Shown here: positions 27,024-41,470 of the stretch, one piece after another
Layout: each line of letters opens with the position of its first letter
How positions within the stretch are numbered: the first letter of the stretch is position 1
NCBI GenBank assembly: GCA_000964245.1
Contig: LANB01000001.1
Coordinates: 1,700,392-1,764,391 of the forward strand
DNA from: Cellvibrionaceae bacterium 1162T.S.0a.05
GTDB lineage: Bacteria > Pseudomonadota > Gammaproteobacteria > Pseudomonadales > Cellvibrionaceae
Length of the DNA stretch: 64,000 nt
Reading direction: 5' to 3'
Notes under the pieces: model-generated
What the model was told of the DNA's origin: nothing
Database searches by the model: none
Seen by the model: the letters and a program-made list of their open reading frames with translations, nothing else
Position numbers and translations under genes: made by a program

Positions 27024-27149
27024 GTGAGTGCAGTGCAGATTATAGGCCAGCCCTGCGGTTCGCCAAAGTCATATACGAAGAAGATGATAAGAGAGATCTA
27101 AATGCGCTTGTTTTTTAACTTTTTCCTTAATAATCAAGGCATTAAATTT

Positions 27150-27220
27150 CAAAATCCTGTTACATGTAATAAATTTGTTTTTGTTACATGTAAAACGCTT
27201 TACATATCACATGTAATAGA
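27150..27220 (+). promoter_or_regulatory. Three phased palindromic TTACATGTAA-type operator candidates upstream of the 27226 operon
   Basis: TTACATGTAA at 27160-27169 and 27184-27193, cACATGTAAt at 27208-27217, and a TTACATAT half-site at 27200. The spacing is about 24-25 bp, and the sites lie 20-75 bp upstream of the start codon. Confidence 0.45.
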
Positions 27221-27225
27221 TTAAA

Positions 27226-27876
27226 GTGGGCCTCATGAAAGCGAAGTCTTCAGCGCATTACCAAAGAGAATATCGTCGTCGTTTGCGCGAGCAGGGCCTT
27301 GTGAAAAAGGAAGTCTGGATTCGCCCTGAAAACGCGAAGCAGCTGGCCGTATTCGAAAAAATCCTGCGTGATGTCATCGAGACACCGCTGGACCCTAACA
27401 AACTGTTGCGTAAAGGAGAGCACACAATGACAGACTTGAAATGTTGGACGACAGACTCTCTCTACGAGGCCATGAAAGATGAAGAGTTGATTCTCAGTGG
27501 GCAGGCCTCGGTAGAACTTATAGGTGGCGTGCATCCAACCTTGCATATCGTGATGCATGAGTACGGGGATTTACCCCTTTTTATGACCGTAGCCGGGGAG
27601 CAGCTTGTCGTTGAAGCCGTACTGTGGTCAACAGAGGAAGTCAGCGATCTTGCGAAATTTAATGATGCTGTGCTGCGAACACACAAGTATTTTCCGCTGT
27701 CCACCATAAGCCTGGACACTCTGGGCGACGGCAAGGATTACTACCACATGTTTGGCGCCTTGAGCTCCGCCTCGATTTTGCCGAACGTGATTTTTGAAAT
27801 TGAAACACTCGCTGCCAATGTGATTCAGGCAACGGAAGCCTACAGCGATCTGTTAAACCCCGCCAAAGAAGCTTAG
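27226..27876 (+). CDS. Hypothetical protein. An N-terminal basic, probably DNA-binding segment is fused to a YjfI/DUF2170-like domain (assignment tentative).
   Basis: The N-terminus KSSAHYQREYRRRLREQGLVKKEVWIRPE resembles RHH/phage-repressor-like basic motifs. It is followed immediately by a PspA/IM30 gene, as in E. coli yjfI-yjfJ. The ATG at 27235 is an alternative start. Confidence 0.4.
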   Translation: MGLMKAKSSAHYQREYRRRLREQGLVKKEVWIRPENAKQLAVFEKILRDVIETPLDPNKLLRKGEHTMTDLKCWTTDSLYEAMKDEELILSGQASVELIGGVHPTLHIVMHEYGDLPLFMTVAGEQLVVEAVLWSTEEVSDLAKFNDAVLRTHKYFPLSTISLDTLGDGKDYYHMFGALSSASILPNVIFEIETLAANVIQATEAYSDLLNPAKEA

Positions 27877-27892: not shown

Positions 27893-28576
27893 ATGAATAT
27901 CTGGGCGAAAATGATGACCGCTTTGCGCGGAGGCATTAACGAAGCCGGCGAAGCCATCGTCGACACGCAAGCCTTGCGCATTTTGGACCAGGAAGTCCGT
28001 GAGGCTACGGATGAGCTTGAGCAATCCAGGGATGGTTTGGCGGCAATTTTGGCTCGCCAAAAACTGGCCGAAGAAAAAGCGGCAAGTTTAAAAAAACAAA
28101 TTGGTGAATACGAAGGCTATGCCACCCAGGCGCTGGAAAAAGGTGACGACGCGCTTGCGCTTGAAGTCGCGCAGAAAATTGCCGACCTGGAGAACCAATT
28201 GCAAACTGAAAATGATGCGGCTGCGGGTTTTGCTGACAGTGCGAAGGATTTACGTTCCGCTATCAAGCAGGCAGAGAGCAATATCAAACGTATCAAGCAG
28301 CAAATCGATACAGTCAAAGCCAAGGAAAGTGTGCAAAAAGCACAAACGGCGGTTGCCGAAAGGCACAGTGGTTCCAATTCAAAAATGCGCACGGCGATGG
28401 ATTCACTGGAGCGCATTAAGGAAAAGCAAGCACTTAAAGATGCGCAAATAAAAGCGGCTGCTGAAATGTCACGTGAAAAAGGTGATGACAGCCTGCAAAC
28501 AAAACTGGAAGAAGCCGGGATCGCACCGACGGGTAAAAAAGCACAAGAGGTGCTGGACCGACTGAAAAAGAAATAG
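27893..28576 (+). CDS. PspA/IM30-family protein (YjfJ-like)
   Basis: The MNIWAKMMTALRGGINEAGEAIVD N-terminus and the long coiled coil (227 aa) are typical of PspA/Vipp1/YjfJ. Confidence 0.8.
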   Translation: MNIWAKMMTALRGGINEAGEAIVDTQALRILDQEVREATDELEQSRDGLAAILARQKLAEEKAASLKKQIGEYEGYATQALEKGDDALALEVAQKIADLENQLQTENDAAAGFADSAKDLRSAIKQAESNIKRIKQQIDTVKAKESVQKAQTAVAERHSGSNSKMRTAMDSLERIKEKQALKDAQIKAAAEMSREKGDDSLQTKLEEAGIAPTGKKAQEVLDRLKKK

Positions 28577-28759: not shown

Positions 28760-28972
28760 ATGGATCGTTTTGAAAAAATTGCCTACAGCATTCTCTTTAT
28801 TCTCGCCGTCTTATACGGGCTCGCTTTGATTGTTGGCATGATGGCCGCTTTCCCTTTCGGTCTGCTTGGTCTGGCTGCAATGGTGGCTTTTGGCTTGCTC
28901 TTTATCAAAGTGCTGTGTGAGCGCATGAATAGCAAGGAAGACGATTATTACGATAAGCACGTGGAGAAATAG
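28760..28972 (+). CDS. Small two-TM membrane protein
   Basis: 70 aa with two hydrophobic helices. It is stop/start adjacent to the ybjQ-like gene (28972/28974). Confidence 0.4.
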   Translation: MDRFEKIAYSILFILAVLYGLALIVGMMAAFPFGLLGLAAMVAFGLLFIKVLCERMNSKEDDYYDKHVEK

Positions 28973-28973
28973 C

Positions 28974-29288
28974 ATGATTATCACCACCCAGGATCGCATT
29001 GAAGAAAAAGAAATCGTTGAAACGCTCGGTCTTGTTCGGGGAAATACAATTCGGGCAAGGCACATTGGTAAGGATATTCTCGCGGGGCTGCGCACTATCG
29101 TCGGTGGTGAAATCAGTGAATACACCAAAATGCTGGCGGAAGCGCGTGAACAGGCCATTGACCGCATGACGGAAGAAGCAAGGAAGTTAGGTGCTGACGC
29201 GATTGTATGTTTACGTTTTACGACGTCGCCGGTTCTACAAGGCGCGGCGGAACTTCTAGCCTATGGAACAGCTGTAAAATTAAATTAA
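28974..29288 (+). CDS. YbjQ/UPF0145 (DUF74) family protein
   Basis: 104 aa; the EIVETLGLVRGNTIRARHIGKDILAGLRTIVGGEI core is typical of YbjQ. Confidence 0.75.
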   Translation: MIITTQDRIEEKEIVETLGLVRGNTIRARHIGKDILAGLRTIVGGEISEYTKMLAEAREQAIDRMTEEARKLGADAIVCLRFTTSPVLQGAAELLAYGTAVKLN

Positions 29289-29341
29289 GTTTGCTGGCTT
29301 AAGCTTCCATAGCTAAGTAATGACAGATACAGGAGCATCCC

Positions 29342-30283
29342 ATGTTTAATCTCATTCTAATTTTTATATTATTTGTATTGTCAGTGCTTAGCGTGACGAA
29401 AATAGCGAGCGCTGTACAGGAAAAAGAAGCCGCACCCGTGTTTAGATACGGAGGCTATTTAGGTCTGGCAGCAGCGACAGTGTGGTTGGCATTCAGCTGT
29501 GTGATGACCGTGCCTGCAGGCCACGTCAAAGTGGCTACGCTCTTTGGTAAAGTACTTGATAATACCTATAAAGAAGGGTTTCATGTCGTCAATCCGCTAC
29601 TCGACTTTACGGTATTTGACCTCCGCCAAAAAACGCATAAAGAAACGGCAGGCATTCCTGCTGAGGATAAGTTGATTACCCGTATGGATGTGTCTGTGCA
29701 ATATCGAACTATCGGTAGCATGGCACCAGACATACTGAGAAACACCGGTACGACAGAATCACTTATCCAGGTTCATATGATTCCCAAGTTGCGTTCAATC
29801 TTGAGAGAGCAGGGTAAAGGAGTGCCGATGTCACAGGATTTTTTCAAGGAGTCGATTCAAAGACAGCTACAAGAGAGTTTACAAGTTGGCTTGGCGGATT
29901 TTCTTGCGGATAAAGGTATTCAGGTTGAGACTGTGCTTATTCGTGAAGTGCAACTGCCAGAAGTGATTCGCACGGCGATTACCGAAACCAAAAAACGTGA
30001 ACAGGAAGTATTAAAGCAGCAAGCAGAATTGGAGCGTTTCGCGACAGAGCAAGATCAGAAAGTGAAACAAGCCGAATCAGAGTTAAAAGCTGCGAAGCTT
30101 GAAGCTCAGAAAATCAAGGAGTTAGCTGATGCTGAAGCCTACAAAATCAAGGTGATTAACGAAACCCTGGCGAAATCACCTAACTACATTGAATTAAAGC
30201 GTGTTGAGCAATGGAATGGCGTTCTGCCAGTATACGCAGGCGGAGAAAACATCCCGATGATTGACTTAAGAAAACCACGCTAA
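29342..30283 (+). CDS. SPFH/band-7 (prohibitin-like) membrane protein
   Basis: N-terminal TM helix, then the SPFH core (VPAGHVKVATLFGKV...FHVVNPLLDFTVFDLRQ) and a C-terminal coiled coil. Confidence 0.8.
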   Translation: MFNLILIFILFVLSVLSVTKIASAVQEKEAAPVFRYGGYLGLAAATVWLAFSCVMTVPAGHVKVATLFGKVLDNTYKEGFHVVNPLLDFTVFDLRQKTHKETAGIPAEDKLITRMDVSVQYRTIGSMAPDILRNTGTTESLIQVHMIPKLRSILREQGKGVPMSQDFFKESIQRQLQESLQVGLADFLADKGIQVETVLIREVQLPEVIRTAITETKKREQEVLKQQAELERFATEQDQKVKQAESELKAAKLEAQKIKELADAEAYKIKVINETLAKSPNYIELKRVEQWNGVLPVYAGGENIPMIDLRKPR

Positions 30284-30336: not shown

Positions 30337-31023
30337 ATGTTTGCAATTCTCGTCACTGACAAAATGGATGTGTTCTACGGAAACATTACCAGCTTCCCCA
30401 CGGTCGTTTTCACCGTTTTACTTTTGTTTTGTTTTCTCTATTGGTTGGTTGCCGTCATTGGTTTGATCGACTTTGATTTTCTTGATTTCGATTTGCCGTC
30501 CGATGATATTGACCTGGGTGGAAACGATAGCCTCGAAAACGTGAATGTGCTGGCGGGCTTGCTGTTAAGGTTGGGCTTAAACGGTGTTCCCTTTCCCATT
30601 GTTTTTTCTATCATAACCATTATTGGCTGGCTAATCTGCTACTACGCGGTGTACTTTATTTTTCCGCTTGTGCCGGGCAGTGTACTCGAGTTTCTGGTCG
30701 GTATACCCATTCTTATAGCAACGTTTTATTTCAGTGCGTTAATTACCGGGAAAATCATTAAGCCACTCAAGTCTATATTTCGAGCTGCCAATCAGGAAGT
30801 TCAGAAAACCATCCTGGGAAAAGTTGCCATTGTTCGTACAGCAAGAGTGGATGCAGATTTTGGTGAAGCGGTTGTGGAAGATGGGGGTGCAGGTCTCATA
30901 GTGAAGGTAAGGCCGTACAAAAAACAAACCTTTACGCGCGGCGACCGTGTTGTATTACTGGAACACGTACGGGAAGAAAATATTTATAAAGTGATATCAG
31001 AACAAGAATTTAGCGATTCTTAA
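30337..31023 (+). CDS. NfeD/YqiJ-like membrane protein with a C-terminal OB-fold (flotillin partner)
   Basis: Multi-TM N-terminal half with an acidic DFDFLDFDLPSDDIDLGG loop. The C-terminal GKVAIVRTARVDADFGEAVVEDGGAGLIVKVRP is an NfeD-type OB fold. It sits immediately upstream of flotillin, as yqiJ does with yqiK. Confidence 0.6.
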   Translation: MFAILVTDKMDVFYGNITSFPTVVFTVLLLFCFLYWLVAVIGLIDFDFLDFDLPSDDIDLGGNDSLENVNVLAGLLLRLGLNGVPFPIVFSIITIIGWLICYYAVYFIFPLVPGSVLEFLVGIPILIATFYFSALITGKIIKPLKSIFRAANQEVQKTILGKVAIVRTARVDADFGEAVVEDGGAGLIVKVRPYKKQTFTRGDRVVLLEHVREENIYKVISEQEFSDS

Positions 31024-31036
31024 AAGGAGAAAAGAA

Positions 31037-32965
31037 ATGTCAGAATATATTGGCGCATTGGGAGGCATAATGGTGGCGGTTTTTGCCATCTTTATATTTC
31101 TCGTGGTTGTGGCTGCGCTGTTTAAATCTTTCTATGTAAAGGTTGAGCAGGGCACCGCGTTAATTAAAAACGACCTTAGCACTCGTCCAAAAGTGTTTTT
31201 TACTGGTGCCTGGATTATTCCTGTCATCCATAAAAAGGAATTAATGCGTATCTCCTTGATTACCATGGAGGTCGATCGGCGAGGTAAAGATGGCTTGATC
31301 TGTAAGGACAATATGCGGGCGGATATCACGGTTGCGTTTTACCTGCGAGTCAATGAAACACCTGAAGATGTACTCAAAGTCGCCAAGTCACTCGGCTCCA
31401 GTCGCGCATCAAATAAAGATGCCGTAAATGAACTCTTCAATGCCAAATTTTCTGAGGCGTTGAAAACAGTGGGTAAGCGCTTTGACTTTGTGAACCTTTT
31501 TGAAAATCGTCAGGAGTTTCGCGACGCGATCATCGAAGTTATCGGCAACGACTTGAACGGTTACGTACTGGAAGACGTTGCAATTGATTATCTGGAGCAA
31601 ACGCCAAAAGTCTCACTGGACCCAAGCAATATTCTTGATGCAGAGGGTATTCGCAAGATCACTGAACTGACAGCGACTCAAAATGTACAAACCAATAATT
31701 ATGAGCGTGACGAAGAGCTCGCAATTAAGAAGAAAAACGTAGAAACCGTTGAAGCGATGCTGGAACTCGAACGCCAGCAGGCAGATGCGGAAGCCAAACA
31801 GCAACGTGAAATTGCCACCATTCAAGCGCGAGAAGAAGCGGAAACCATTAAAGTTCAGGAAGAAGAACGCAAAAAATCCTCTTCAGCAACCATCCAGGTT
31901 GACCAGGATCTCGCCGTACAAAAAGAAAATCAACAGCGTGAAATCGAAGTGGCCGAACAAAATCGCCAACGTGCAGTGGTTATTGAGGTCGAAAAAGTCA
32001 CGCGCGCACGAGATCTTGAAATTGTCGCCCGTGAACGCGAGGTCGAACTGCAACGTATTGATGCAGAAAAAGCAGTTGAAGTTGAGAAGAAAGAAATTGC
32101 CAATGTCATTCGGGAACGTGTTGCGGTTGATAAAACGGTTGCGATTGAAGAAGAGCGTATCAAGGAAGTGCGTGAAGTGTCTGAAGCAGATCGCCTGAAG
32201 CAAACCCAGGTATTGGCAGCAGAAGCTAAAGCGGAAGAAGAGAAAGTTAAACGTGTGAAAGAAGCGGAAGCTGAAGAGATTGCAGCGAAGCATAAAGCGG
32301 TTGAGGTCACCACTATCGCGCAGGCCGATCTCGAAGCGGCTGCGAAAGAAGCCGATGCCAAGAAGAAACTTGCAGAAGGTGTACAGGCTGAACGTGCAGC
32401 GCCGGGGCTTGCGGATGCCAAAGTGCAGGAAGCTAAAGCGGATGCGCTAGAGAAAGAAGGCCTTGCTGAAGCGAAAGTGATTGCATCAAAAGGTCAGAGC
32501 GAAGCGGAAGTGATTGCTGCGAAAGGCGATGCCGAGGCGCGTGCTACGAAAGAAACAGGTCTTGCGGGTGCTGAAGTTATTCGTCAGAAGTTCAAAGCGG
32601 AAGCGGACGGCCTTGTAGATAAATTCGAAGCGATGGGCACTATGAGTGATCAGGCGCGTAATCACGAAGAATTCCGTATGGCGCTGGAAACAGCTCTCAA
32701 GGAAGCGCTGGCCTCGATTGAAGCGGGTAAGGAAATCGCGAAGGAAAATGCCGAAGTGCTGGCCACAGCGCTGCAAAAAGCGAAGATCGATATTGTCGGT
32801 GGAGAAGATCACTTCTTCGATAACTTTGCGAAATCGCTTTCCATTGGTAAAGCGGTCGACGGGTTGGCCAACAAGAGCAGCACGATTTCGACTTTGTTGG
32901 AAAAAGTGATGGCCTTCTCTGCGGGTGCGCAGGCTACGAAAAGCTCCGATTTGGAAACCCAATAA
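31037..32965 (+). CDS. Flotillin-family protein (YqiK-like)
   Basis: N-terminal TM and SPFH domain (VEQGTALIKNDLSTRPKVFFTGAWIIPVIHK...), then a very long E/A/K-rich coiled-coil tail. 642 aa. Confidence 0.85.
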   Translation: MSEYIGALGGIMVAVFAIFIFLVVVAALFKSFYVKVEQGTALIKNDLSTRPKVFFTGAWIIPVIHKKELMRISLITMEVDRRGKDGLICKDNMRADITVAFYLRVNETPEDVLKVAKSLGSSRASNKDAVNELFNAKFSEALKTVGKRFDFVNLFENRQEFRDAIIEVIGNDLNGYVLEDVAIDYLEQTPKVSLDPSNILDAEGIRKITELTATQNVQTNNYERDEELAIKKKNVETVEAMLELERQQADAEAKQQREIATIQAREEAETIKVQEEERKKSSSATIQVDQDLAVQKENQQREIEVAEQNRQRAVVIEVEKVTRARDLEIVAREREVELQRIDAEKAVEVEKKEIANVIRERVAVDKTVAIEEERIKEVREVSEADRLKQTQVLAAEAKAEEEKVKRVKEAEAEEIAAKHKAVEVTTIAQADLEAAAKEADAKKKLAEGVQAERAAPGLADAKVQEAKADALEKEGLAEAKVIASKGQSEAEVIAAKGDAEARATKETGLAGAEVIRQKFKAEADGLVDKFEAMGTMSDQARNHEEFRMALETALKEALASIEAGKEIAKENAEVLATALQKAKIDIVGGEDHFFDNFAKSLSIGKAVDGLANKSSTISTLLEKVMAFSAGAQATKSSDLETQ

Positions 32966-32996: not shown

Positions 32997-33488
32997 ATGA
33001 AAACTCTAGTGAAAATTAGCCTTTTACTCATTCTGTCAGTGCCGGTATTTGCTGCAGATAACGAAAAGGCCGCACGCGCCGAACTGGATAAAATGTTCGA
33101 ACTAACGAATATGACTGCAATGGTCGATCAAATGTACGCCCAAATTGGGAATATGTGGCAACAAATGGCGGCGCAGCAAAATATTCCTGCTGACAAAGCG
33201 GGTGTCACTAAAAAATATTTTGAGAGACTCGAAGCCATAATGCGTGAAGACATGAGCTGGGAAAAAATGAAAGAACCAATGATGCAGGTCTACATTCGCG
33301 CTTTCAGTCTTGAAGAAATAAAAGCCATGAATGAATTCTACGAAACACCGGCAGGTTCTGCGATGTTGAAAAAAATGCCCCAGGTCATGCAGGAAAGCAT
33401 GATGGTGGGTCAACAACTTGCACAAGCAATGATGCCTAAAATCCAGGCTTTATCGCAGGAAATGTCTGCCGAACTGCAAGCGAAATAA
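32997..33488 (+). CDS. Periplasmic DUF2059-like protein
   Basis: Signal peptide and Met/Gln-rich helices (FYETPAGSAMLKKMPQVMQESMM). Confidence 0.55.
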   Translation: MKTLVKISLLLILSVPVFAADNEKAARAELDKMFELTNMTAMVDQMYAQIGNMWQQMAAQQNIPADKAGVTKKYFERLEAIMREDMSWEKMKEPMMQVYIRAFSLEEIKAMNEFYETPAGSAMLKKMPQVMQESMMVGQQLAQAMMPKIQALSQEMSAELQAK

Positions 33489-33512: not shown

Positions 33513-36500
33513 GTGTCAATAGAACGGGAAAGCGCACAAGTCGATCAAGCCGTTGCTGAAGGTGGCGCATACGAGGTTCTGCGCAAGCGCTTGCTTGAGC
33601 AGGGTACAGCGCTGGAGACTGCGATCAAAGCGCTCAATACAGCACGGCTGGATGAATTTGGTTCGTCAGATATGGAAGTCTGCGCGCGGGTTCGTATCCG
33701 CACGGAGAACAATTGTGTAGCGCGTGACATTGTCCAGGTTGGCCCTTTGCTTCTTTTTGGTTACAACGTTTTTATCGGTTTAAAAAAAGAAACACGCGTA
33801 GAGGATGTTTTTTCTGTTTTTTCACTAAAGGGTGAGGGAAAGGACCTGACGCTTGAAGAGGTCAAAGCAGAAAACTGCTTCCTGGCAAACAAGGCCTTCC
33901 GCAAAGACTTTAAAGAACTTTATCATTATTACAGCCAAACCAAATTGCTGGAGCTCACTGTCAAGGACGGCAAATTATTGATGGGCTTTCAAATCGGCGA
34001 GCGCCTGGAAGACCAGCGTGTTTTCCGTTGGGCATTTTCTCCAGACGGCACACAACTGGAATACATTGATAATCGCGGTGAGCGTGATATCGCGTTGCCA
34101 CCTTCCTATGATTTTGAATGGTTGAAACTCGGCCGTGACGATACCGTACATGGCAAACACGCGCATGTGAATGTGCTCGACAAGGTTTTTGTTGAAACAA
34201 CACGCGGCGATCTTACCATCAAAATTGAAAACAATACTGAAAGTGGATTGGGTATTTACAGCGAAGCGGTCGAAGAACCAAACCAATCCATAGACGACGC
34301 TGAATATTATTACGCTGCACTGGGGGATTTGATTCTTTTAAAAATCTTACCCTACAAAGAAGATCACTTCCGTTATTTTATTTTTAATACCCTAACGAAT
34401 GATATCCGCCGGCTTGATGCCATTGGCGGTTCTTGTGTGCAGCTCCCGGAAGATCACGGCGTGGTTTTTCCAGGTGGTTATTACTTGCAAAGTGGTGAAT
34501 ACAAAACCTTCGATAGCAATAGCGAAAACCTTCGTTTCAAACGGGTATTGAAATCGCCCAACGGCGAAGATGTACTTTACGTTTTCTACGAGCCTGAAAA
34601 GGGTATTTGCGGCCTGTTTGCTTACAACATGATCAATAAGAGCTTGCAAAACCCGATTTACGGGCATGGCTACGCGCTCAGAAACGACGGCAAGCTCATC
34701 ATATTTTCAGCCGAAAAAGAGGCGACACGTGTTCACCCCATGCAAATTTGGGAAACACCCTATTTCAGTGACGAGTACGCGAGCACCCAGCCCGCGAGTC
34801 AAAGTTACTATGGCCGTATTGGTAACGCTGCTCTGGTCCGAGGCATATCTGACGTTCTGTCTGTTGTCCGCATGATTAAAAACCAGAGTGTTAGCTCGCG
34901 GCTTTACGAAGAAATGGCCAGAGCCTCGCTCAAGGTGTTTGATGATCACTATTGGTTAGCGGAAGATGAATGTGCGGAAATTCAGGCACAGCTCAAAGAC
35001 ATTGCTTCGAGCGCCAATCTTGCAATTGATGAATTTGAGAAAGTCAAAAGCATTCAAAAACAAAGTGCACAGGCACTAAGAGAAGCGGATAGCAAACAGA
35101 AGGCGCTGGTATCGCGCATTCGCACAGCGAGTTGGGAAAATGCAGAAGACTATGTGAAAGCGCTCGATGAATGTCGCCACCAGCGTGGTCGTCTGGCAAC
35201 AATTAAAGATTACCGTTATATCGATCTCGAAAAAATCGGCGCGCTGGATGAAGAAATTGCTGAAGTCCAGGAGCAGCTTGGTGTTAAAACGATAGAATTT
35301 CTGAGCGCTGGCGATGCGCTAGCGCCCTACCTGGAAAAAATCAGTGGCATCGACAGTGAGGTGCAAGAAGCAGAAACGATTGCAACGCTAACCCCCTTGG
35401 TTGAGCAGATCGAAAACATTGCCTCTGGTCTGGACTTGCTGTCGGAATTACTTGCGAGCTTACAAGTTGGTGATACCACAGTACGCACCCGCATCGTCGA
35501 CAGCATCTCTGAAGTGTATGCGAAGCTGAACCAGAGTAAGGCGCAAGCACAACACAAGCAAAAAAATCTTGGCTCCGAAGAGGCCATCGCACAATTTGCC
35601 GCGCAATTTAAGTTGTTCTCACAAAGCATTACCAATGCCTTGGGTTTGGCAACAAGCCCGGAAGCTTGCGACGAGCAAATGTCGCGCTTGCTCATTCAGC
35701 TGGAAGAACTTGAAAGCCAATTCAGTGAATACGAACAATTCCTCGCAGATATTATGGAAAAGCGCGAGGAAATTTACGAAACCTTTGAAAGTCACAAGCA
35801 AAAATTGTTAGACGATTGTCAGCGGCGCGCGCAAGGCATTGCTGATGCGGCAGACAGGGTTCTGAGCAGTATTCAGCGGCGCAGCCAAAAATTTACCGAC
35901 CAGGATGAGCTCAATACCTATTTTGCTTCTGATGCTCTGGTGCTCAAGGTACGTGAATTCGTTGCGCAATTGCACAAACTGGATGCCAGTGTAAGCGCTG
36001 AAGACATCGATGCCCGTTTTAAAGCCCTGAAAGAACAAAGCATCCGAATTTTGCGTGATAAAAGTGATATTTACGAAGAGGGCGGTGCGGTTATCAAGTT
36101 GGGGCCGCGTCATAAATTTTCGGTGAATACCCAGGAGCTGGATCTCACCATCATACCCCGCAAAGATGCACTCTTTATTCATTTATCGGGAACAGATTAC
36201 TACCAGCGCATTGAGCATGAAGAGCTCAACGCGTTAAAACCCTGGTGGCATGTCAATCTGGAATCAGAAAGCGACGAGGTGTATCGCGCAGAATATCTGG
36301 CTGCCAGTATTTTGTGGGCAGCCCAATCCCGGCGCGATGATCTGGATATGGAGACCTTGCGTCTTGCCAGCTCAGACGACAAAGCGTTGAATAAACTTTG
36401 CCGAAATTTTGCCGCGCCACGCTACAAGGAAGGCTATGAAAAAGGCATACACGACCACGATGCTGCGCGGATTCTTTCTGCTCTTATTCCTGCAATGGAA

Positions 36501-38831
36501 AGTGCAGACTTGCTGCGTTTTGATCCGCAATGCCGGGGTTTTGCTCAGGTATTTTGGGCAAACATTGAAAGAATTTCGGCAGAACTAAAGAACAAACGCC
36601 TCACGTTTGAGACCTGGGTTGAGCGCGCGCAATCAGCACATCAGATGCAAGCTCAGCTACAAAGCCGCGACGCCGCTGAATTGCTCGCAGAAGAAGTGTT
36701 TGCAGCAATGCAGGAGTTTATCGCCTATCACCCCTTTGACCTCAGCGAACTGGAGTTAAAACGTGCTGCTGATTATCTTGTGGCTGAGTTGGGCGAGGAC
36801 CGACCGCAATTTGTTGGCTCAAAATATGCGAGAACACTGGCAGATGAATTAAAACGCTCATTGAATGATGAAAGCTGGCGGCAATTTCAAACCGCACTGA
36901 AGAAAATGCAGGGTTGGCCAGCAGAACGTTGGAAGCTCAGTTGTGCCTGGTTGAAAGCGATGGTCAAGGAGCGGAACCTGGAATCCTTGATGCGCTATGT
37001 CCCCGAAGCGGCAGCACTGATCAATGCAGACGAACGGATCGAACGACGCCCCTCGGAAGTGGATTTGGAATTAAATGTTGAAAAGCTCCTTGGGGATCAC
37101 AAACGTATCCAGAACCAATGTTTGCAACTAGGCGTCGATGAATTCCTTTTGCGTATGCACAAACATCGCAATGAATTTATTCCATCCTACCAGCGCTTTC
37201 ATCACTTGCGTCAGCGCATTGCCGATGAACAAAAGGCCCGCTTGCGCTTGCAGGAATTCAAAGCCAGGCCCTTGAGCTCGTTCGTACGCAACAAACTGAT
37301 TAACGAAGCCTACCTGCCTATTATTGGCGACAACCTGGCAAAACAAATGGGAACGGTCGGCGACAGTAAGCGCACGGATTTGATGGGCTTATTAATGATG
37401 ATCTCGCCTCCCGGCTACGGTAAAACCACATTAATGGAATATGTGGCGAGCCGCCTGGGATTGATATTCATGAAAATAAATTGCCCGGCCCTTGGACATG
37501 ATGTGCTATCACTGGACCCACAACAAGCGCCAAACGCAACGGCGGCTCAGGAGTTGAACAAACTCAATCTGGGTCTTGAAATGGGCAACAATGTCATGCT
37601 GTATCTGGATGATATTCAACATACTCATCCGGAATTTCTGCAAAAATTTATTTCTCTTTGCGATGGTACGCGCCGTATAGAAGGGGTATGGGACGGTCAA
37701 ACAAAAACCTACGATATGCGTGGCAAAAAATTCTGCGTTGTTATGGCCGGTAACCCCTACACCGAGTCTGGGGAAGTGTTCAAAATTCCGGACATGTTGG
37801 CTAACCGCGCCGACATTTATAATCTTGGTGATATTCTGGGCGGCATGGATGAGGCGTTCGCACTCAGTTATGTGGAGAACAGCCTAACATCAAACTCCGT
37901 GCTCGCGCCTCTCGCGACTCGGGATTTGAAAGACGTGTACCTTTTTGCGCGCATGGCACAAGGTGAAGATGTCGCGACCACAGATCTGAGCCATCAGTAT
38001 TCAGCGGCAGAAATCGGTGAAATTGTCGATGTCCTGAAAAAACTTTTCATGATTCGCGATGTCGTGTTGAAAATTAATCAACAATACATCGCCTCCGCAG
38101 CACAAGCGGACAAGTATCGCGTAGAGCCGCCCTTTAAACTGCAAGGTAGCTATCGCAACATGAATAAAATGGCAGAAAAGGTTTCTGCCATCATGAATGA
38201 AAAAGAACTTCAACAACTTATTGAAGATCATTACCTCGGTGAAGCACAGTTATTAACAACAGGTGCCGAAGAAAACCTGTTGAAACTGATGGAATTGCGC
38301 GGCGTTCTTCAAGGTGAAAAAGCGCAACGTTGGCAAGCCATTAAGAAAGATTTCTTGCGCGTTAAATCTCTTGGTGGAGACGACGCAGATACCGGAACCA
38401 AAATCATAACGCAGCTCGGCGTGTTGGGTGAAAGCTTGAATAGCATTGCTGTGGCTACCCAGCGAGCGGGCAAGGATTTTGGTAAGGCGGTGAGTAAAAC
38501 AGACAAAAGTCGTGATCATGCTGCTATGGATTCAAGAGTGGCGGACGCATTACTCGCCTTAAAATCCGTAATCGAGAAAATTGAATCAACAACAAAAAAT
38601 ACGCCACCTCCCAAGGTTGAAGTTATCAATCAACCCGTACCTGGCGTTGATAAAATATTGAGAGTGTTGGCAAAAACTATCGAAGGAACAATCTTTCCAC
38701 TGGTTCGCAGTATGGATAAGAAGCTGGAAATCGACCTGCGAACCCATGAAAAAATGTCTGAAGTTTCGAACCAACTCAGAGAACTGGAAAAGGAAGTTCG
38801 TACAGGTAGTTTTGAAAAAGGTCAGTCCTGA
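33513..38831 (+). CDS. Giant (1772 aa) protein with an N-terminal beta-rich domain, a long coiled coil and a C-terminal MoxR/AAA_5-like ATPase domain
   Basis: GTG start with an AGGAAG RBS. Walker A MMISPPGYGKTTLM, Walker B MLYLDDIQH and the MoxR-like sensor block VVMAGNPYTESGEVFKIPDMLANRADIYNLGD are present. About 600 aa of heptad-rich helix precede the ATPase. Confidence 0.8.
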   Translation: MSIERESAQVDQAVAEGGAYEVLRKRLLEQGTALETAIKALNTARLDEFGSSDMEVCARVRIRTENNCVARDIVQVGPLLLFGYNVFIGLKKETRVEDVFSVFSLKGEGKDLTLEEVKAENCFLANKAFRKDFKELYHYYSQTKLLELTVKDGKLLMGFQIGERLEDQRVFRWAFSPDGTQLEYIDNRGERDIALPPSYDFEWLKLGRDDTVHGKHAHVNVLDKVFVETTRGDLTIKIENNTESGLGIYSEAVEEPNQSIDDAEYYYAALGDLILLKILPYKEDHFRYFIFNTLTNDIRRLDAIGGSCVQLPEDHGVVFPGGYYLQSGEYKTFDSNSENLRFKRVLKSPNGEDVLYVFYEPEKGICGLFAYNMINKSLQNPIYGHGYALRNDGKLIIFSAEKEATRVHPMQIWETPYFSDEYASTQPASQSYYGRIGNAALVRGISDVLSVVRMIKNQSVSSRLYEEMARASLKVFDDHYWLAEDECAEIQAQLKDIASSANLAIDEFEKVKSIQKQSAQALREADSKQKALVSRIRTASWENAEDYVKALDECRHQRGRLATIKDYRYIDLEKIGALDEEIAEVQEQLGVKTIEFLSAGDALAPYLEKISGIDSEVQEAETIATLTPLVEQIENIASGLDLLSELLASLQVGDTTVRTRIVDSISEVYAKLNQSKAQAQHKQKNLGSEEAIAQFAAQFKLFSQSITNALGLATSPEACDEQMSRLLIQLEELESQFSEYEQFLADIMEKREEIYETFESHKQKLLDDCQRRAQGIADAADRVLSSIQRRSQKFTDQDELNTYFASDALVLKVREFVAQLHKLDASVSAEDIDARFKALKEQSIRILRDKSDIYEEGGAVIKLGPRHKFSVNTQELDLTIIPRKDALFIHLSGTDYYQRIEHEELNALKPWWHVNLESESDEVYRAEYLAASILWAAQSRRDDLDMETLRLASSDDKALNKLCRNFAAPRYKEGYEKGIHDHDAARILSALIPAMESADLLRFDPQCRGFAQVFWANIERISAELKNKRLTFETWVERAQSAHQMQAQLQSRDAAELLAEEVFAAMQEFIAYHPFDLSELELKRAADYLVAELGEDRPQFVGSKYARTLADELKRSLNDESWRQFQTALKKMQGWPAERWKLSCAWLKAMVKERNLESLMRYVPEAAALINADERIERRPSEVDLELNVEKLLGDHKRIQNQCLQLGVDEFLLRMHKHRNEFIPSYQRFHHLRQRIADEQKARLRLQEFKARPLSSFVRNKLINEAYLPIIGDNLAKQMGTVGDSKRTDLMGLLMMISPPGYGKTTLMEYVASRLGLIFMKINCPALGHDVLSLDPQQAPNATAAQELNKLNLGLEMGNNVMLYLDDIQHTHPEFLQKFISLCDGTRRIEGVWDGQTKTYDMRGKKFCVVMAGNPYTESGEVFKIPDMLANRADIYNLGDILGGMDEAFALSYVENSLTSNSVLAPLATRDLKDVYLFARMAQGEDVATTDLSHQYSAAEIGEIVDVLKKLFMIRDVVLKINQQYIASAAQADKYRVEPPFKLQGSYRNMNKMAEKVSAIMNEKELQQLIEDHYLGEAQLLTTGAEENLLKLMELRGVLQGEKAQRWQAIKKDFLRVKSLGGDDADTGTKIITQLGVLGESLNSIAVATQRAGKDFGKAVSKTDKSRDHAAMDSRVADALLALKSVIEKIESTTKNTPPPKVEVINQPVPGVDKILRVLAKTIEGTIFPLVRSMDKKLEIDLRTHEKMSEVSNQLRELEKEVRTGSFEKGQS

Positions 38832-38834
38832 TCT

Positions 38835-39392
38835 ATGGCCAGCGAGAGTATAGTTGCGCGCGTAAAATTGCTGTTCAGCTTATGCATGTTTCTGATTCTG
38901 GTTCATGCAGCGAATGTGTTTCTACAAGGCTATTTACTGCAATTCGGCATTTTACCGCGGGAACCCACTAGCCTGCCTTTTATATTCACCACCGTATTTA
39001 TTCATGGGTCCTGGGCGCATTTATTTAACAACCTCTTCGGCCTTGTAATTTTTGGTTCGCTTTGTCTTTTGCGCGGTCGCCGATATTTCATTAACGCCAG
39101 CCTCTTTATTATTGTAGTCGGTGGGCTACTGGTATGGGCGTTTGGTCGGCCAGCAATACACATCGGTGCGAGTGGATGGATATTTGGCTTGTGGAGTTTA
39201 AGTATTGCTCTTGCCTGGTACCAAAAAAGCTTTATCAACTTCGCTATAGCGGTGCTTGTTCTATTTTTTTATGGCGGGATGATATACGGCGTACTGCCAG
39301 CGGATAAAGCGATTTCATTTGAAGCGCACCTGGCGGGCGCCTTCGCAGGCATTCTATGTGCTGCAAATAGCAGAACACGAAAAATACGGTAA
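38835..39392 (+). CDS. Rhomboid-family intramembrane serine protease
   Basis: GASGWIFGL (GxSG) and AHLAGAFAGIL (catalytic His helix) with 6 TM helices. The start lies 4 nt after the giant ORF stop. Confidence 0.8.
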   Translation: MASESIVARVKLLFSLCMFLILVHAANVFLQGYLLQFGILPREPTSLPFIFTTVFIHGSWAHLFNNLFGLVIFGSLCLLRGRRYFINASLFIIVVGGLLVWAFGRPAIHIGASGWIFGLWSLSIALAWYQKSFINFAIAVLVLFFYGGMIYGVLPADKAISFEAHLAGAFAGILCAANSRTRKIR

Positions 39393-39452: not shown

Positions 39453-39704
39453 ATGAAAAGGAAATTTTCAGTAAAAGTCAATCATTATGCAGCAAAAGCA
39501 ATAGATGTAAATTTTAATAGTAATGAAGAGACAATCGCAATCAACCTTGTTTTATTGATGATTGTTGGTGGAGTCGCATGGTATGGAATCGAACATAAAA
39601 TATGGGGATTGTTCTGGTTTTTTATCGTTGCCGGTACCCTTATAGGGATATCCCTGTTAATCGATTTATACTTGCTTATTAAGAAAAAGATATGTCCAGA
39701 TTAA
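39453..39704 (+). CDS. Small two-TM membrane protein
   Basis: RBS AAAGGAGAAAAAATG. 83 aa. It overlaps the start of the PLD-like gene. Confidence 0.4.
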   Translation: MKRKFSVKVNHYAAKAIDVNFNSNEETIAINLVLLMIVGGVAWYGIEHKIWGLFWFFIVAGTLIGISLLIDLYLLIKKKICPD

Positions 39705-40387
39705 AAGAGCTTGAACAAAAACTTCTAATCACATTCGAAGATCTGCGTTTATCCAAGCTGGAAAAATATGAGTTGCAGAAGCTTGTGACTGAATGCTCGG
39801 AAGAGGAGCGTCGTTTTCTCAAGAATCGGGCTTTTGCTATTTTCAGGGAGCATTTAAATCATTTTGAAGATGCTGCTGATGCTTATTCGTGGCTTGAGCG
39901 TTGCGTAAAGGCACTAGCGCTTCCGCAAAATCATTTGGCGAAACCACGGGTCTATTTTTCGCCAGGTGAAACGTGCCGGCAGGCCATCGTACATGAAATA
40001 AAAAACGCCCGAGAGAAAATACAGATTTGCGTGTTTACCATTTCAGACAACGTAATAAGTGAAGCACTATTGCAAGCTTTTGAAAAGGGTATAGACCTAA
40101 AAATTATTACCGACAATGAAAAAAAGGAAGATCGGGGATCCGATATTAATGCGCTAAAAAACGCGGGCATCGCAGTAAGAGAAGATGCGAGCCCGGATCA
40201 TATGCATCACAAATTTGCGATTTTTGATAACGACGTACTTATAAATGGCAGTTTCAATTGGACGCGAAGTGCAAGCCTTCGAAACCACGAGAATATCGTG
40301 GTCCACCGCCAACCGCAGCTTGTTGCTGAATTTCAAAGAGAGTTTGCTAGACTGTGGACTCAATTTTCCAAAGAGGGGAGACGATAA
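39692..40387 (+). CDS. Phospholipase-D-superfamily (single HKD, Nuc-like) protein with an N-terminal helical extension
   Basis: HKD motif HHKFAIFDNDVLINGSFNWTRSA. About 140-aa PLD core after a 90-aa coiled-coil N-terminus. Confidence 0.7.
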   Translation: MSRLKELEQKLLITFEDLRLSKLEKYELQKLVTECSEEERRFLKNRAFAIFREHLNHFEDAADAYSWLERCVKALALPQNHLAKPRVYFSPGETCRQAIVHEIKNAREKIQICVFTISDNVISEALLQAFEKGIDLKIITDNEKKEDRGSDINALKNAGIAVREDASPDHMHHKFAIFDNDVLINGSFNWTRSASLRNHENIVVHRQPQLVAEFQREFARLWTQFSKEGRR

Positions 40388-40917
40388 TGCATTGCCCGGT
40401 ATGTAAAGAACCCGATCTGGAGCCCAGAGAACTTGAACGTGGACTGGTAGGCGCAGTGTGTCAATCTTGCGAAGGCGCACTTTTATCATTGATACAGTAC
40501 CGCTATTGGGTCGATCATCATGATGACAAGGAACTTAAACCTTTGGAGGAGGGGCCAATCAAGGAAAGTGAAAATGCCTTGCTGTGCCCAAAGTGCCAAA
40601 AAATGATGACTAAATATCGCTTGGGGGCTGGAACTCGCCACCGTATAGATCTTTGCGGTCATTGCGATGAGGCCTGGCTTGACAAGGGGGAATGGCAATT
40701 GCTCAAACAATTGGATTTACACAATCAATTGCCTTCTGTTTTTACCGAGGCTTGGCAGCGCAATATTCGTAAACAAAAAGAACGTCAAAGCCTGGAAAAA
40801 CACTATGAACAAGAAATTGGAGAAGAAGATTTTTTAAAAGTAAAAACATTTAAAGAGTGGCTCGACAAGCATCCGAAACTGGGGCAGATAAAACACTATA
40901 TCAATATCAAGTTTTAA
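40387..40917 (+). CDS. Zinc-ribbon protein with four CxxC pairs
   Basis: CPVCKE...CQSCEG and CPKCQK...CGHCDE. The start ATG overlaps the PLD stop (TAATG). Confidence 0.6.
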   Translation: MHCPVCKEPDLEPRELERGLVGAVCQSCEGALLSLIQYRYWVDHHDDKELKPLEEGPIKESENALLCPKCQKMMTKYRLGAGTRHRIDLCGHCDEAWLDKGEWQLLKQLDLHNQLPSVFTEAWQRNIRKQKERQSLEKHYEQEIGEEDFLKVKTFKEWLDKHPKLGQIKHYINIKF

Positions 40918-40929
40918 GGGGAGTGATTA

Positions 40930-41165
40930 TGACTGAAGCAAGAGACTATCTGGAGTTAACCTTTCGTTCGATCAATTGCTTTGCCGACGATGGCAAGCTC
41001 GATGTTCAGGAGTTGGATAGTTTAATCAGCATCGCGCTACGCGATGGTGTTGTTGATGATAACGAAAAGCGTGTTTTGCAAGCGATTATCGGTCGATTGA
41101 ACCAACAAGAGCTGACTGAGGAAATGCAGGCTAGAATCAAACAAATCCAGAACACTTATTTCTGA
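40930..41165 (+). CDS. TerB-like (tellurite-resistance TerB fold) small protein
   Basis: [38 protein letters not shown] is a TerB/DjlA-N type acidic helix pair. 78 aa. Confidence 0.5.
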
Positions 41166-41272
41166 TCCCGGTGTTCATTTTGAGAGGGTTTGCGATTGTG
41201 AATGCCGTCACGCAACTTTCTCCTTTCATTTTGCGTATAGATTCAGGACTTTCCAACAAAAGGATGTACGCA

Positions 41273-41470
41273 ATGTTAGTGTTAACTCGAAAAATCGGCG
41301 AAACCGTCATGATCGGCGATGATACTGCTGTAACCGTGTTGGGCATGCGCGGTGGCCATGTCCGTATCGGAATCGCCGCACCAAAGGAACTGCCCGTTCA
41401 TCGTGAAGAAGTGTATATAAAAATCAAGCGTGGGATGGGTGTACCCGGCTATACCTTCGAGAATTGCTGA
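41273..41470 (+). CDS. csrA: Carbon storage regulator CsrA
   Basis: [48 protein letters not shown] is near-identical in pattern to E. coli CsrA. 65 aa. Confidence 0.9.

Follow-up and report, generated by a model that had tools for sequence, protein, structure and literature searches.

A predicted rhomboid protease as an optional accessory of a PspA/flotillin/AAA+ membrane-stress operon in a Cellvibrionaceae bacterium

Introduction

The window analysed here is a stretch of 64,000 nucleotides (nt) from Cellvibrionaceae bacterium 1162T.S.0a.05 (GCA_000964245.1, contig LANB01000001.1, positions 1,700,392 to 1,764,391), and all coordinates given below are positions within it. Its gene of interest is a short open reading frame (ORF) for a rhomboid intramembrane serine protease, which begins immediately after the gene of a giant AAA+ ATPase. 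From 27226 to about 41165 every gene lies on the + strand with short gaps. To judge from gene content and order, the rhomboid is a distal cistron of a membrane-stress operon of the bacABCDEF type, placed between the DUF3686 AAA+ gene and a PLD gene. The features at the centre of the analysis are the following.

33513..38831, + strand: giant DUF3686 + DUF7902 + AAA+ ATPase, 1772 amino acids, bacE-type (Pfam DUF3686 E=4e-198, DUF7902, AAA/AAA_5)
38829..38837, + strand: junction TGA-TCT-ATG, comprising the giant stop codon, a 3-nt spacer and the rhomboid start codon (sequence read directly)
38835..39392, + strand: rhomboid intramembrane serine protease (Pfam PF01694, invariant catalytic residues, AlphaFold2 model, GlpG fold matches)

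The rhomboid and its active site

The rhomboid ORF runs from an ATG at 38835 to 39392 and specifies 185 amino acids, corresponding to a minimal core of six transmembrane (TM) segments. Residues 50-176 match the Pfam family Rhomboid PF01694 (E=1.2e-20, 74.6 bits against a cutoff of 22.6). The GxSG motif is found as G111-A-S113-G114 in TM4, the catalytic histidine is H165 in TM6 together with G168 and G172, and TM2 carries the motif H57..H62..N66. An alignment of 151 sequences was assembled from the window rhomboid, 31 rhomboids of related genomic loci and 119 database homologues; S113, H165, H57, H62 and N66 are invariant in it, and the set extended by G168 and G172 is invariant or nearly so. 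A preliminary description of this DNA had named a rhomboid with a GxSG...H dyad and six TM segments, and the Pfam match, the invariant residues and the six helices of the structural model agree with it. It had also named a catalytically dead orthologue as something that would refute its reading; the dyad is intact in every orthologue examined. The ORF at 38835-39392 is thus predicted to encode a catalytically competent, apparently active rhomboid protease.

The AlphaFold2 model, for which 32 homologues were supplied, contains six long helices (pLDDT 90, pTM 0.86). When it was compared with the PDB using Foldseek, the top 33 matches were all GlpG (TM-scores 0.63-0.72), and E. coli GlpG aligned over about 180 columns with a TM-score of about 0.7 and about 20% identity. 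Sequence and profile searches of the PDB with the rhomboid returned no match; a GlpG-like fold without such a match points to a divergent but bona fide rhomboid core. The window protein shares with E. coli GlpG, the prototype bacterial rhomboid of peptidase family S54, the six-TM core fold, the GxSG serine at the start of TM4, the TM6 histidine and the TM2 H..H...N motif. In contrast to GlpG, it has no N-terminal cytoplasmic domain, has a short L1 loop, lies in another genomic context and is too distant for detection by PDB profile search. No extra domains are present in the model or the sequence. Rhombosortase (TIGR03902), likewise a short bacterial rhomboid and the sole NCBIfam model with any match to the window protein, was ruled out at 34.3 bits against a cutoff of 84, and no GlyGly-CTERM context was seen.

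The junction with the giant ATPase gene

The giant ORF ends with TGA at 38829-38831, followed by the spacer TCT at 38832-38834 and the rhomboid ATG. The gap had previously been given as 4 nt; the spacer is 3 nt, and it is the start codon that lies four positions past the last base of the stop. The only Shine-Dalgarno-like bases are AAGG at 38818-38821, about 13 nt 5' of the rhomboid ATG. For comparison, 56 giant-to-rhomboid junctions were collected from other genomes and metagenomes by pooling the giant-locus set with the metagenome rhomboid loci, with start codons assigned heuristically. The median gap is 4 nt, 50 of the 56 junctions have a gap of 30 nt or less, and 16 show a 4-nt ATGA/GTGA overlap, so that the overlap or few-nucleotide spacer of a coupled gene pair is conserved in orthologous loci. 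Because the rhomboid ATG lies 3 nt past the stop and has no well-placed Shine-Dalgarno sequence, the junction at 38829..38837 is a probable termination-reinitiation site, at which ribosomes finishing the 1772-codon ATPase gene would most likely reinitiate on the rhomboid. Translational coupling of this kind would keep the protease in a fixed, low proportion to the ATPase. A short gap as such is ordinary for operon genes.

The giant ORF (33513) and the rhomboid ORF (38835) share a reading frame with only TGA-TCT between them, and readthrough of the TGA would therefore give a fusion protein of giant ATPase and rhomboid. This frame relationship is not conserved: the 16 junctions with a 4-nt overlap put the two genes out of frame with each other, as do further gaps whose length is not divisible by three. 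There is also no fused homologue among the top matches, where rhomboid matches measure 167-223 amino acids and giant matches 1718-1882. Since the frame is not conserved across junctions, readthrough fusion was rejected, and its probability is close to nil.

The preliminary description had further stated that the rhomboid has no room for a promoter of its own. This is an overstatement, since a promoter could sit within the giant ORF. A consensus promoter scan of the last 3 kb of the giant ORF on the + strand found none, a scan of this kind being weak evidence. Scanning for sigma-70 promoters and terminators gave counts no higher than expected from shuffled sequence and nothing informative near the junction.

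Relation to the bac and YjfI-PspA operons

An operon of CesT/Tir (YjfI), PspA (YjfJ), Band7/flotillin, AAA+ and YqiJ genes, with or without PLD, has been described (Ravi et al. 2024, PMC11237479), including the giant type as a novel AAA+ protein. Its P. aeruginosa counterpart is the bacABCDEF cluster (PMC2587700, PMC10948618). In strain PA14 this cluster was found to form one transcript by reverse-transcription polymerase chain reaction, including the giant ATPase gene bacE and the PLD gene bacF (PMC10948618). Effects on membrane stress, biofilm and rhamnolipids are the phenotypes reported for bac (PMC2587700). The remaining genes of the window operon are listed here in order.

27226..27876, + strand: DUF2170/YjfI, CesT/Tir-like chaperone, bacA-type (Pfam DUF2170 E=2e-49); operon head, conserved
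27893..28576, + strand: PspA/IM30 family protein, YjfJ/bacB-type (Pfam PspA_IM30 E=6e-45); conserved
28760..30283, + strand: insert of a 70-amino-acid protein with two TM segments (orf70), YbjQ_1 and a 313-amino-acid SPFH/Band_7 protein (Pfam YbjQ_1, Band_7); lineage-specific
30337..31023, + strand: YqiJ/YuaF (NfeD-like) protein with several TM segments, 228 amino acids, bacC-type; adjoins the flotillin gene in related loci
31037..32965, + strand: flotillin-like protein, 642 amino acids, bacD/YqiK-type; single N-terminal TM segment, SPFH-like region, long coiled coil
32997..33488, + strand: secreted DUF2059 protein (Pfam DUF2059), between the flotillin and giant genes; lineage-specific
39453..39704, + strand: 83-amino-acid protein with two predicted TM segments (translation), between the rhomboid and PLD genes; lineage-specific
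39692..40387, + strand: PLD/HKD-superfamily hydrolase, bacF-type (Pfam PLDc_2 E=5e-32)
40354..41165, + strand: double zinc-ribbon protein (187 amino acids) and weakly TerB-like protein (102 amino acids); recurrent operon-tail genes

The window operon possesses the DUF2170(YjfI)-PspA dyad at its head and the large AAA+ protein with an N-terminal DUF3686 region, and its flotillin and YqiJ-like genes are orthologous to those of 80 related loci. It shares with bacABCDEF the order of families DUF2170, PspA_IM30, YqiJ-like, flotillin-like, DUF3686/AAA+ and PLD, and its giant protein is 55-57% identical to Pseudomonas-group homologues. It differs in that a rhomboid stands between the bacE and bacF homologues, whereas the P. 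aeruginosa-type locus (L034) has none, and in the added orf70-YbjQ-SPFH and DUF2059 inserts. A sigma-54 site has been proposed for bacA of P. aeruginosa (PMC10948618), whereas the window has no match to the sigma-54 -24/-12 consensus upstream of the first operon gene, with counts below chance. We infer co-transcription of the window operon from strand, spacing and synteny.

Family labels within the operon differ in their source. The YqiJ-like label is taken from PMC11237479; Pfam, NCBIfam and PDB searches gave no match. The 642-residue flotillin-like protein likewise has no direct Pfam, NCBIfam or PDB sequence match, and comparison of its family with the window Band_7 protein using hhalign was negative (probability 1.3%); it is called a flotillin because homologues at 51-53% identity are annotated as 'flotillin family protein' or 'SPFH domain-containing protein' and because of the operon described in PMC11237479. 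The giant ATPase has a Walker A motif, SPPGYGKTT, at about residues 1298-1306, and homologues at 63-79% identity are widespread. No protease domain or TM segment was detected in it, and it is predicted to be soluble and cytoplasmic. PDB sequence and profile searches with it gave no match, and the AlphaFold2 model of its AAA+/C-terminal 593 residues (pLDDT 55, pTM 0.31) is too poor for fold search or classification.

Neither the operon nor the enzyme family is new; a recurrent, optional rhomboid within the operon was not found in the literature searched. The word 'rhomboid' is absent from PMC11237479, and a rhomboid in the bac operon is also not mentioned in PMC10948618 or PMC2587700. A known anti-phage defence system was rejected as an identity for the locus: none of the rhomboid, giant, flotillin and YqiJ-like proteins matched a PADLOC model, and the only matches were generic PLD-domain ones of the PLD gene and two weak coiled-coil ones of the PspA protein.

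Conservation of the pairing

Conservation was followed from both genes. From the ATPase side, 80 loci around homologues of the giant protein (51-67% identical, each from a different species) were examined, of which 75 are informative in having at least 1 kb downstream. The YqiJ-like, flotillin and giant genes are grouped in all loci that extend far enough upstream, and DUF2170-PspA lies upstream in most. An orthologous short rhomboid lies immediately downstream of the giant gene on the same strand in 27 of the 75 informative loci, from Cellvibrionaceae, Hahella, Oleiphilaceae, Saccharospirillaceae, many Pseudomonas-group genera, Pragia, Limnobaculum, Xenorhabdus and Entomomonas. In the complete genome of Agarilytica rhodophyticola the rhomboid gene follows the giant gene after a gap of 3 nt. 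Stutzerimonas stutzeri, Aquipseudomonas alcaligenes and Cellvibrio mixtus also carry the junction. The preliminary description had proposed a search for the pairing in other genomes, and had held that its absence from related ones would refute the reading; several groups of Gammaproteobacteria share the pairing, with an overlap or a very short gap. Other placements also occur. In two Kangiellaceae loci (L031 and L060) the YqiJ-like gene directly follows the rhomboid; PspA stands before the rhomboid in L031 and was not detected in L060; in two metagenome-assembled genomes (L017 and L046) it is divergent to the DUF2170 (yjfI) gene.

A different rhomboid of 476 amino acids, with an N-terminal extension, a C-terminal helical domain and an intact GxSG/H, was observed together with a membrane partner of about 500 amino acids bearing zinc-ribbon and TPR regions on two related Cellvibrionaceae contigs (L055, 15583-18557; L163, 8001-10960), about 270-320 nt 3' of the giant ATPase gene. 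Pairs of this type are located elsewhere in Motiliproteus and Cellvibrio, and the position next to the giant gene is probably incidental.

From the rhomboid side, 80 metagenomic loci were fetched with the rhomboid alignment, of which 66 are informative in having enough upstream sequence. The rhomboid is directly 3' of the giant ATPase gene in 29 of these 66, and in one more (L135) an M90 peptidase gene stands between the two. In seven (L152-L155 and L158-L160) it directly follows PspA in the order DUF2170-PspA-rhomboid-K+ channel(-YjfL...), with no flotillin or giant gene within 10 kb (e.g. L158, 8518-11608); this arrangement matches the 'polyamine' class of yjfIJ operons of Ravi et al. (PMC11237479). 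These seven loci have a GC content of 0.58-0.61, which is Pseudomonas-like. Proximity of the rhomboid to the PspA/flotillin/AAA+ module is thus retained in at least four arrangements and in two PspA operon classes.

An MtfA-like Peptidase_M90 gene adjoins the rhomboid in about 19 related loci (L162, 10567-11406; L002, L091, L096, L098, L100, L103, L107, L108, L111-L113, L116, L118, L124, L126, L135, L142 and L151) and is absent from the window. The M90 and rhomboid genes overlap by 4 nt in L162, L096 and L103, and the M90 copy of L162 has a C-terminal SEC-C motif. Because the M90-rhomboid pair is detached from the giant operon in L096, L103 and L126, a unit of rhomboid and metallopeptidase is suggested.

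A facultative link to the whole module

We favour, with some reserve, the reading that an apparently active rhomboid is expressed together with the PspA/flotillin/AAA+ membrane-maintenance module and very probably has a functional connection to it. Several observations weigh against it. No rhomboid occurs within 10 kb in 43 of the 75 informative giant loci (about 57%), and 29 of the 66 informative orthologue loci (about 44%) place the rhomboid in unrelated contexts without a conserved neighbour; these percentages are not population estimates, as each scan contributed its best 80 matches and many of the loci come from related lineages. The rhomboid-less giant loci include the P. aeruginosa type and those of Lysobacteraceae, Lampropedia, Gilliamella and Longimicrobium, and an iterated hidden Markov model search over such loci recovered only the divergent rhomboid of L055 and a second, unlinked copy in L046. 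In the complete genome of Teredinibacter turnerae the orthologue lies outside the operon context. A neighbour-joining tree interleaves operon-linked and orphan rhomboids, and the operon copies therefore do not form a subfamily of their own. Outside the membrane the protein has no domain able to dock an ATPase, and comparison of the N-terminal TM anchors of flotillins from rhomboid-linked and rhomboid-less loci revealed no discriminating feature.

These observations raise the alternative of a housekeeping quality-control rhomboid that hitch-hikes at the 3' end of the operon in some lineages and shares at most its regulation. The many orthologues located elsewhere without conserved neighbours, the interleaving of linked and orphan copies, the lack of a rhomboid in most giant loci and the bare six-TM core of the protein would all suit such a gene. 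However, inherited synteny alone can hardly account for proximity to the module in at least four arrangements and two PspA operon classes, and the stop/start overlap is conserved in many lineages. Hitch-hiking is judged less likely than the functional connection that we favour, but has to be taken seriously.

Both sets of counts bear on the earlier phrase that the rhomboid is 'hard-wired' to an AAA motor, which does not hold. The pairing is facultative, because it is absent from many giant loci and many rhomboids are unlinked. The rhomboid also occurs near YjfI-PspA without flotillin or giant genes, and upstream of the YqiJ-like gene in Kangiellaceae, which connects it to the whole module and not to the motor in particular. 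On these gene neighbourhoods the rhomboid is best described as an optional, lineage-variable accessory of the PspA/flotillin/AAA+ module, and not as an obligate partner of the motor.

Candidate substrates and the ATPase

The preliminary description had proposed that the single-TM SPFH and flotillin scaffolds, whose genes lie upstream, are delivered to the rhomboid by the AAA+ motor, with cleavage serving turnover or quality control. Membrane proteases that act on an SPFH-family partner are known from NfeD/STOPP-stomatin operons, in which the SPFH-family gene adjoins a membrane serine protease and an NfeD-type protein; these proteases cleave the operon-partner stomatin, which counts in favour of the proposal. 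The NfeD/STOPP protease is ClpP-like in fold, is fused to NfeD and is not a rhomboid, and the window YqiJ-like protein, in contrast, has no protease domain. The flotillin anchor is a single N-terminal TM segment, rich in Gly and Ala, in N-out/C-in orientation, the orientation that is cleaved in TatA, a known bacterial rhomboid substrate (cited in PMC7232013). The proposal is also favoured by the existence of eukaryotic SPFH-rhomboid-AAA assemblies. Rhomboids were earlier said to co-occur with SPFH/flotillin proteins in a few bacteria, but no bacterial rhomboid-flotillin operon was found in the literature searched, and the documented SPFH-rhomboid-AAA associations are eukaryotic, namely SLP2-PARL-YME1L (PMC10818064) and RHBDL4-erlin-p97 (PMC12615303).

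Against this proposal, the gene of the 313-residue SPFH protein is unique to the window genome, occurring in 0 of 160 related loci; it is therefore not a conserved substrate and cannot explain a conserved link. The flotillin anchor is a plausible target in principle, but such anchors do not differ with the presence of a rhomboid. The rhomboid is also found in YjfI-PspA operons with neither flotillin nor giant gene nearby. The ATPase is predicted to be soluble, whereas the rhomboid has no cytoplasmic domain for docking. In rhomboids of GlpG-type topology the active site is open towards the periplasm, whereas the motor is predicted to be cytoplasmic, and this too speaks against a hard-wired protease-motor pair. 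Delivery of scaffolds to the rhomboid by the motor is accordingly considered very unlikely.

Proposed role and precedents

If the rhomboid is an accessory of the whole module, as we favour, it could serve as the intramembrane proteolytic arm of a membrane-maintenance system. Upon induction of the operon, it would clip exposed or destabilised TM helices near the periplasmic face. Its targets may be damaged or orphan membrane proteins gathered in a patch organised by flotillin and PspA or, alternatively, the N-out/C-in anchor of flotillin or the YqiJ-like protein. The cleavage products might then be handled by the cytoplasmic AAA+ ATPase or, in some relatives, by the adjacent M90 metallopeptidase.

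YqgP (GluP) of B. subtilis, which has extra cytosolic and C-terminal domains and whose gene is not known to share an operon with ftsH, is the nearest bacterial precedent for a rhomboid and an AAA+ protein in quality control. YqgP acts with the AAA+ protease FtsH in membrane-protein quality control (PMC7231995), and orphan complex subunits are cleaved by GlpG and Rhom7 (PMC7232013). Given these precedents, a quality-control or licensing role would be the most economical one for the window rhomboid. The YqgP-FtsH case differs in that the two proteins interact physically, FtsH being a membrane-bound ATP-dependent metalloprotease (PMC7231995), whereas the link here is genomic only, and in that the window AAA+ protein has no detected protease domain or TM segment.

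An SPFH scaffold, a rhomboid and an AAA+ enzyme are brought together in the mitochondrial SPY complex (SLP2/STOML2-PARL-YME1L; PMC10818064), and the same three kinds of component are found in the endoplasmic reticulum (ER) as RHBDL4 with erlin1/2 and p97 (PMC12615303). Both are eukaryotic and physically demonstrated, with orthology of the components not established, whereas the window offers a facultative gene neighbourhood only. It is a speculative and rather improbable idea that the rhomboid, flotillin, ESCRT-III-like PspA/YjfJ and giant AAA+ protein form the bacterial counterpart of such assemblies. In such a counterpart, the rhomboid would clip TM helices within a flotillin-delimited patch and the AAA+ protein would extract or disassemble the products during envelope repair, while the anchor of a scaffold (flotillin or YqiJ-like) might be a regulated substrate.

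Further features of the operon

The lineage-specific insert lies between the PspA and YqiJ-like genes. Among related loci, orf70 and YbjQ were found only in Agarilytica (L009, L167), and the DUF2059 gene has a homologue in 0 of the 160 related loci. The 83-residue protein is found only in near-identical contigs, with a match in 0 of the 160; its ORF overlaps the PLD start by 13 nt and has a strong GGAG-rich ribosome-binding region upstream. The PLD gene is a frequent operon tail and follows the rhomboid or the giant gene in many loci. Beyond it, the 187-residue protein matches Pfam Zn_ribbon_TFIIB and the 102-residue protein has a weak TerB match below the cutoff. These two genes accompany the operon in many lineages (many of L001-L160), and in Pseudomonas-group loci the homologue of the 102-residue protein lies between the flotillin and giant genes, the place taken by DUF2059 in the window.

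A CsrA-family ORF (41171-41470) lies 3' of the operon tail. Its start is listed as GTG; as the Pfam match covers only residue 35 onwards, translation probably begins at the internal Met of MLVLTRK instead. Directly 5' of the first operon gene (27140-27225) stand three palindromes of the TTACATGTAA type, at 27150-27160, 27184-27194 and 27200-27217, which look like candidate operators for a dimeric regulator. Flotillin homologues 51-62% identical to the window protein are carried on large plasmids of distant phyla, with plasmid or chromid records in Deinococcus (CP029777.1, AP021850.1), P. fluorescens SBW25 pQBR103 (NC_009444.1) and Streptomyces plasmids, which suggests that the flotillin(-giant) module is horizontally mobile.

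Implications

Only a handful of physiological substrates or partners of bacterial rhomboids have been established (PMC7232013, PMC7231995). Within the literature searched, the rhomboid is a previously unreported component of the poorly understood bac/Psp-flotillin operon, and its presence there is a hint that the SPFH-rhomboid-AAA+ triads known from mitochondria and the ER have a bacterial parallel. Should co-regulation be all that connects it with the operon, the rhomboid would be an ordinary operon-tail gene. The pairing is a useful lead to the role of the rhomboid and not proof of a protease-motor machine. As this rhomboid recurs inside a defined PspA/flotillin/AAA+ membrane-stress operon, it comes with a short list of candidate partners and inducing conditions, and culturable carriers include Stutzerimonas stutzeri, several Pseudomonas-group species, Cellvibrio, Agarilytica and Xenorhabdus.

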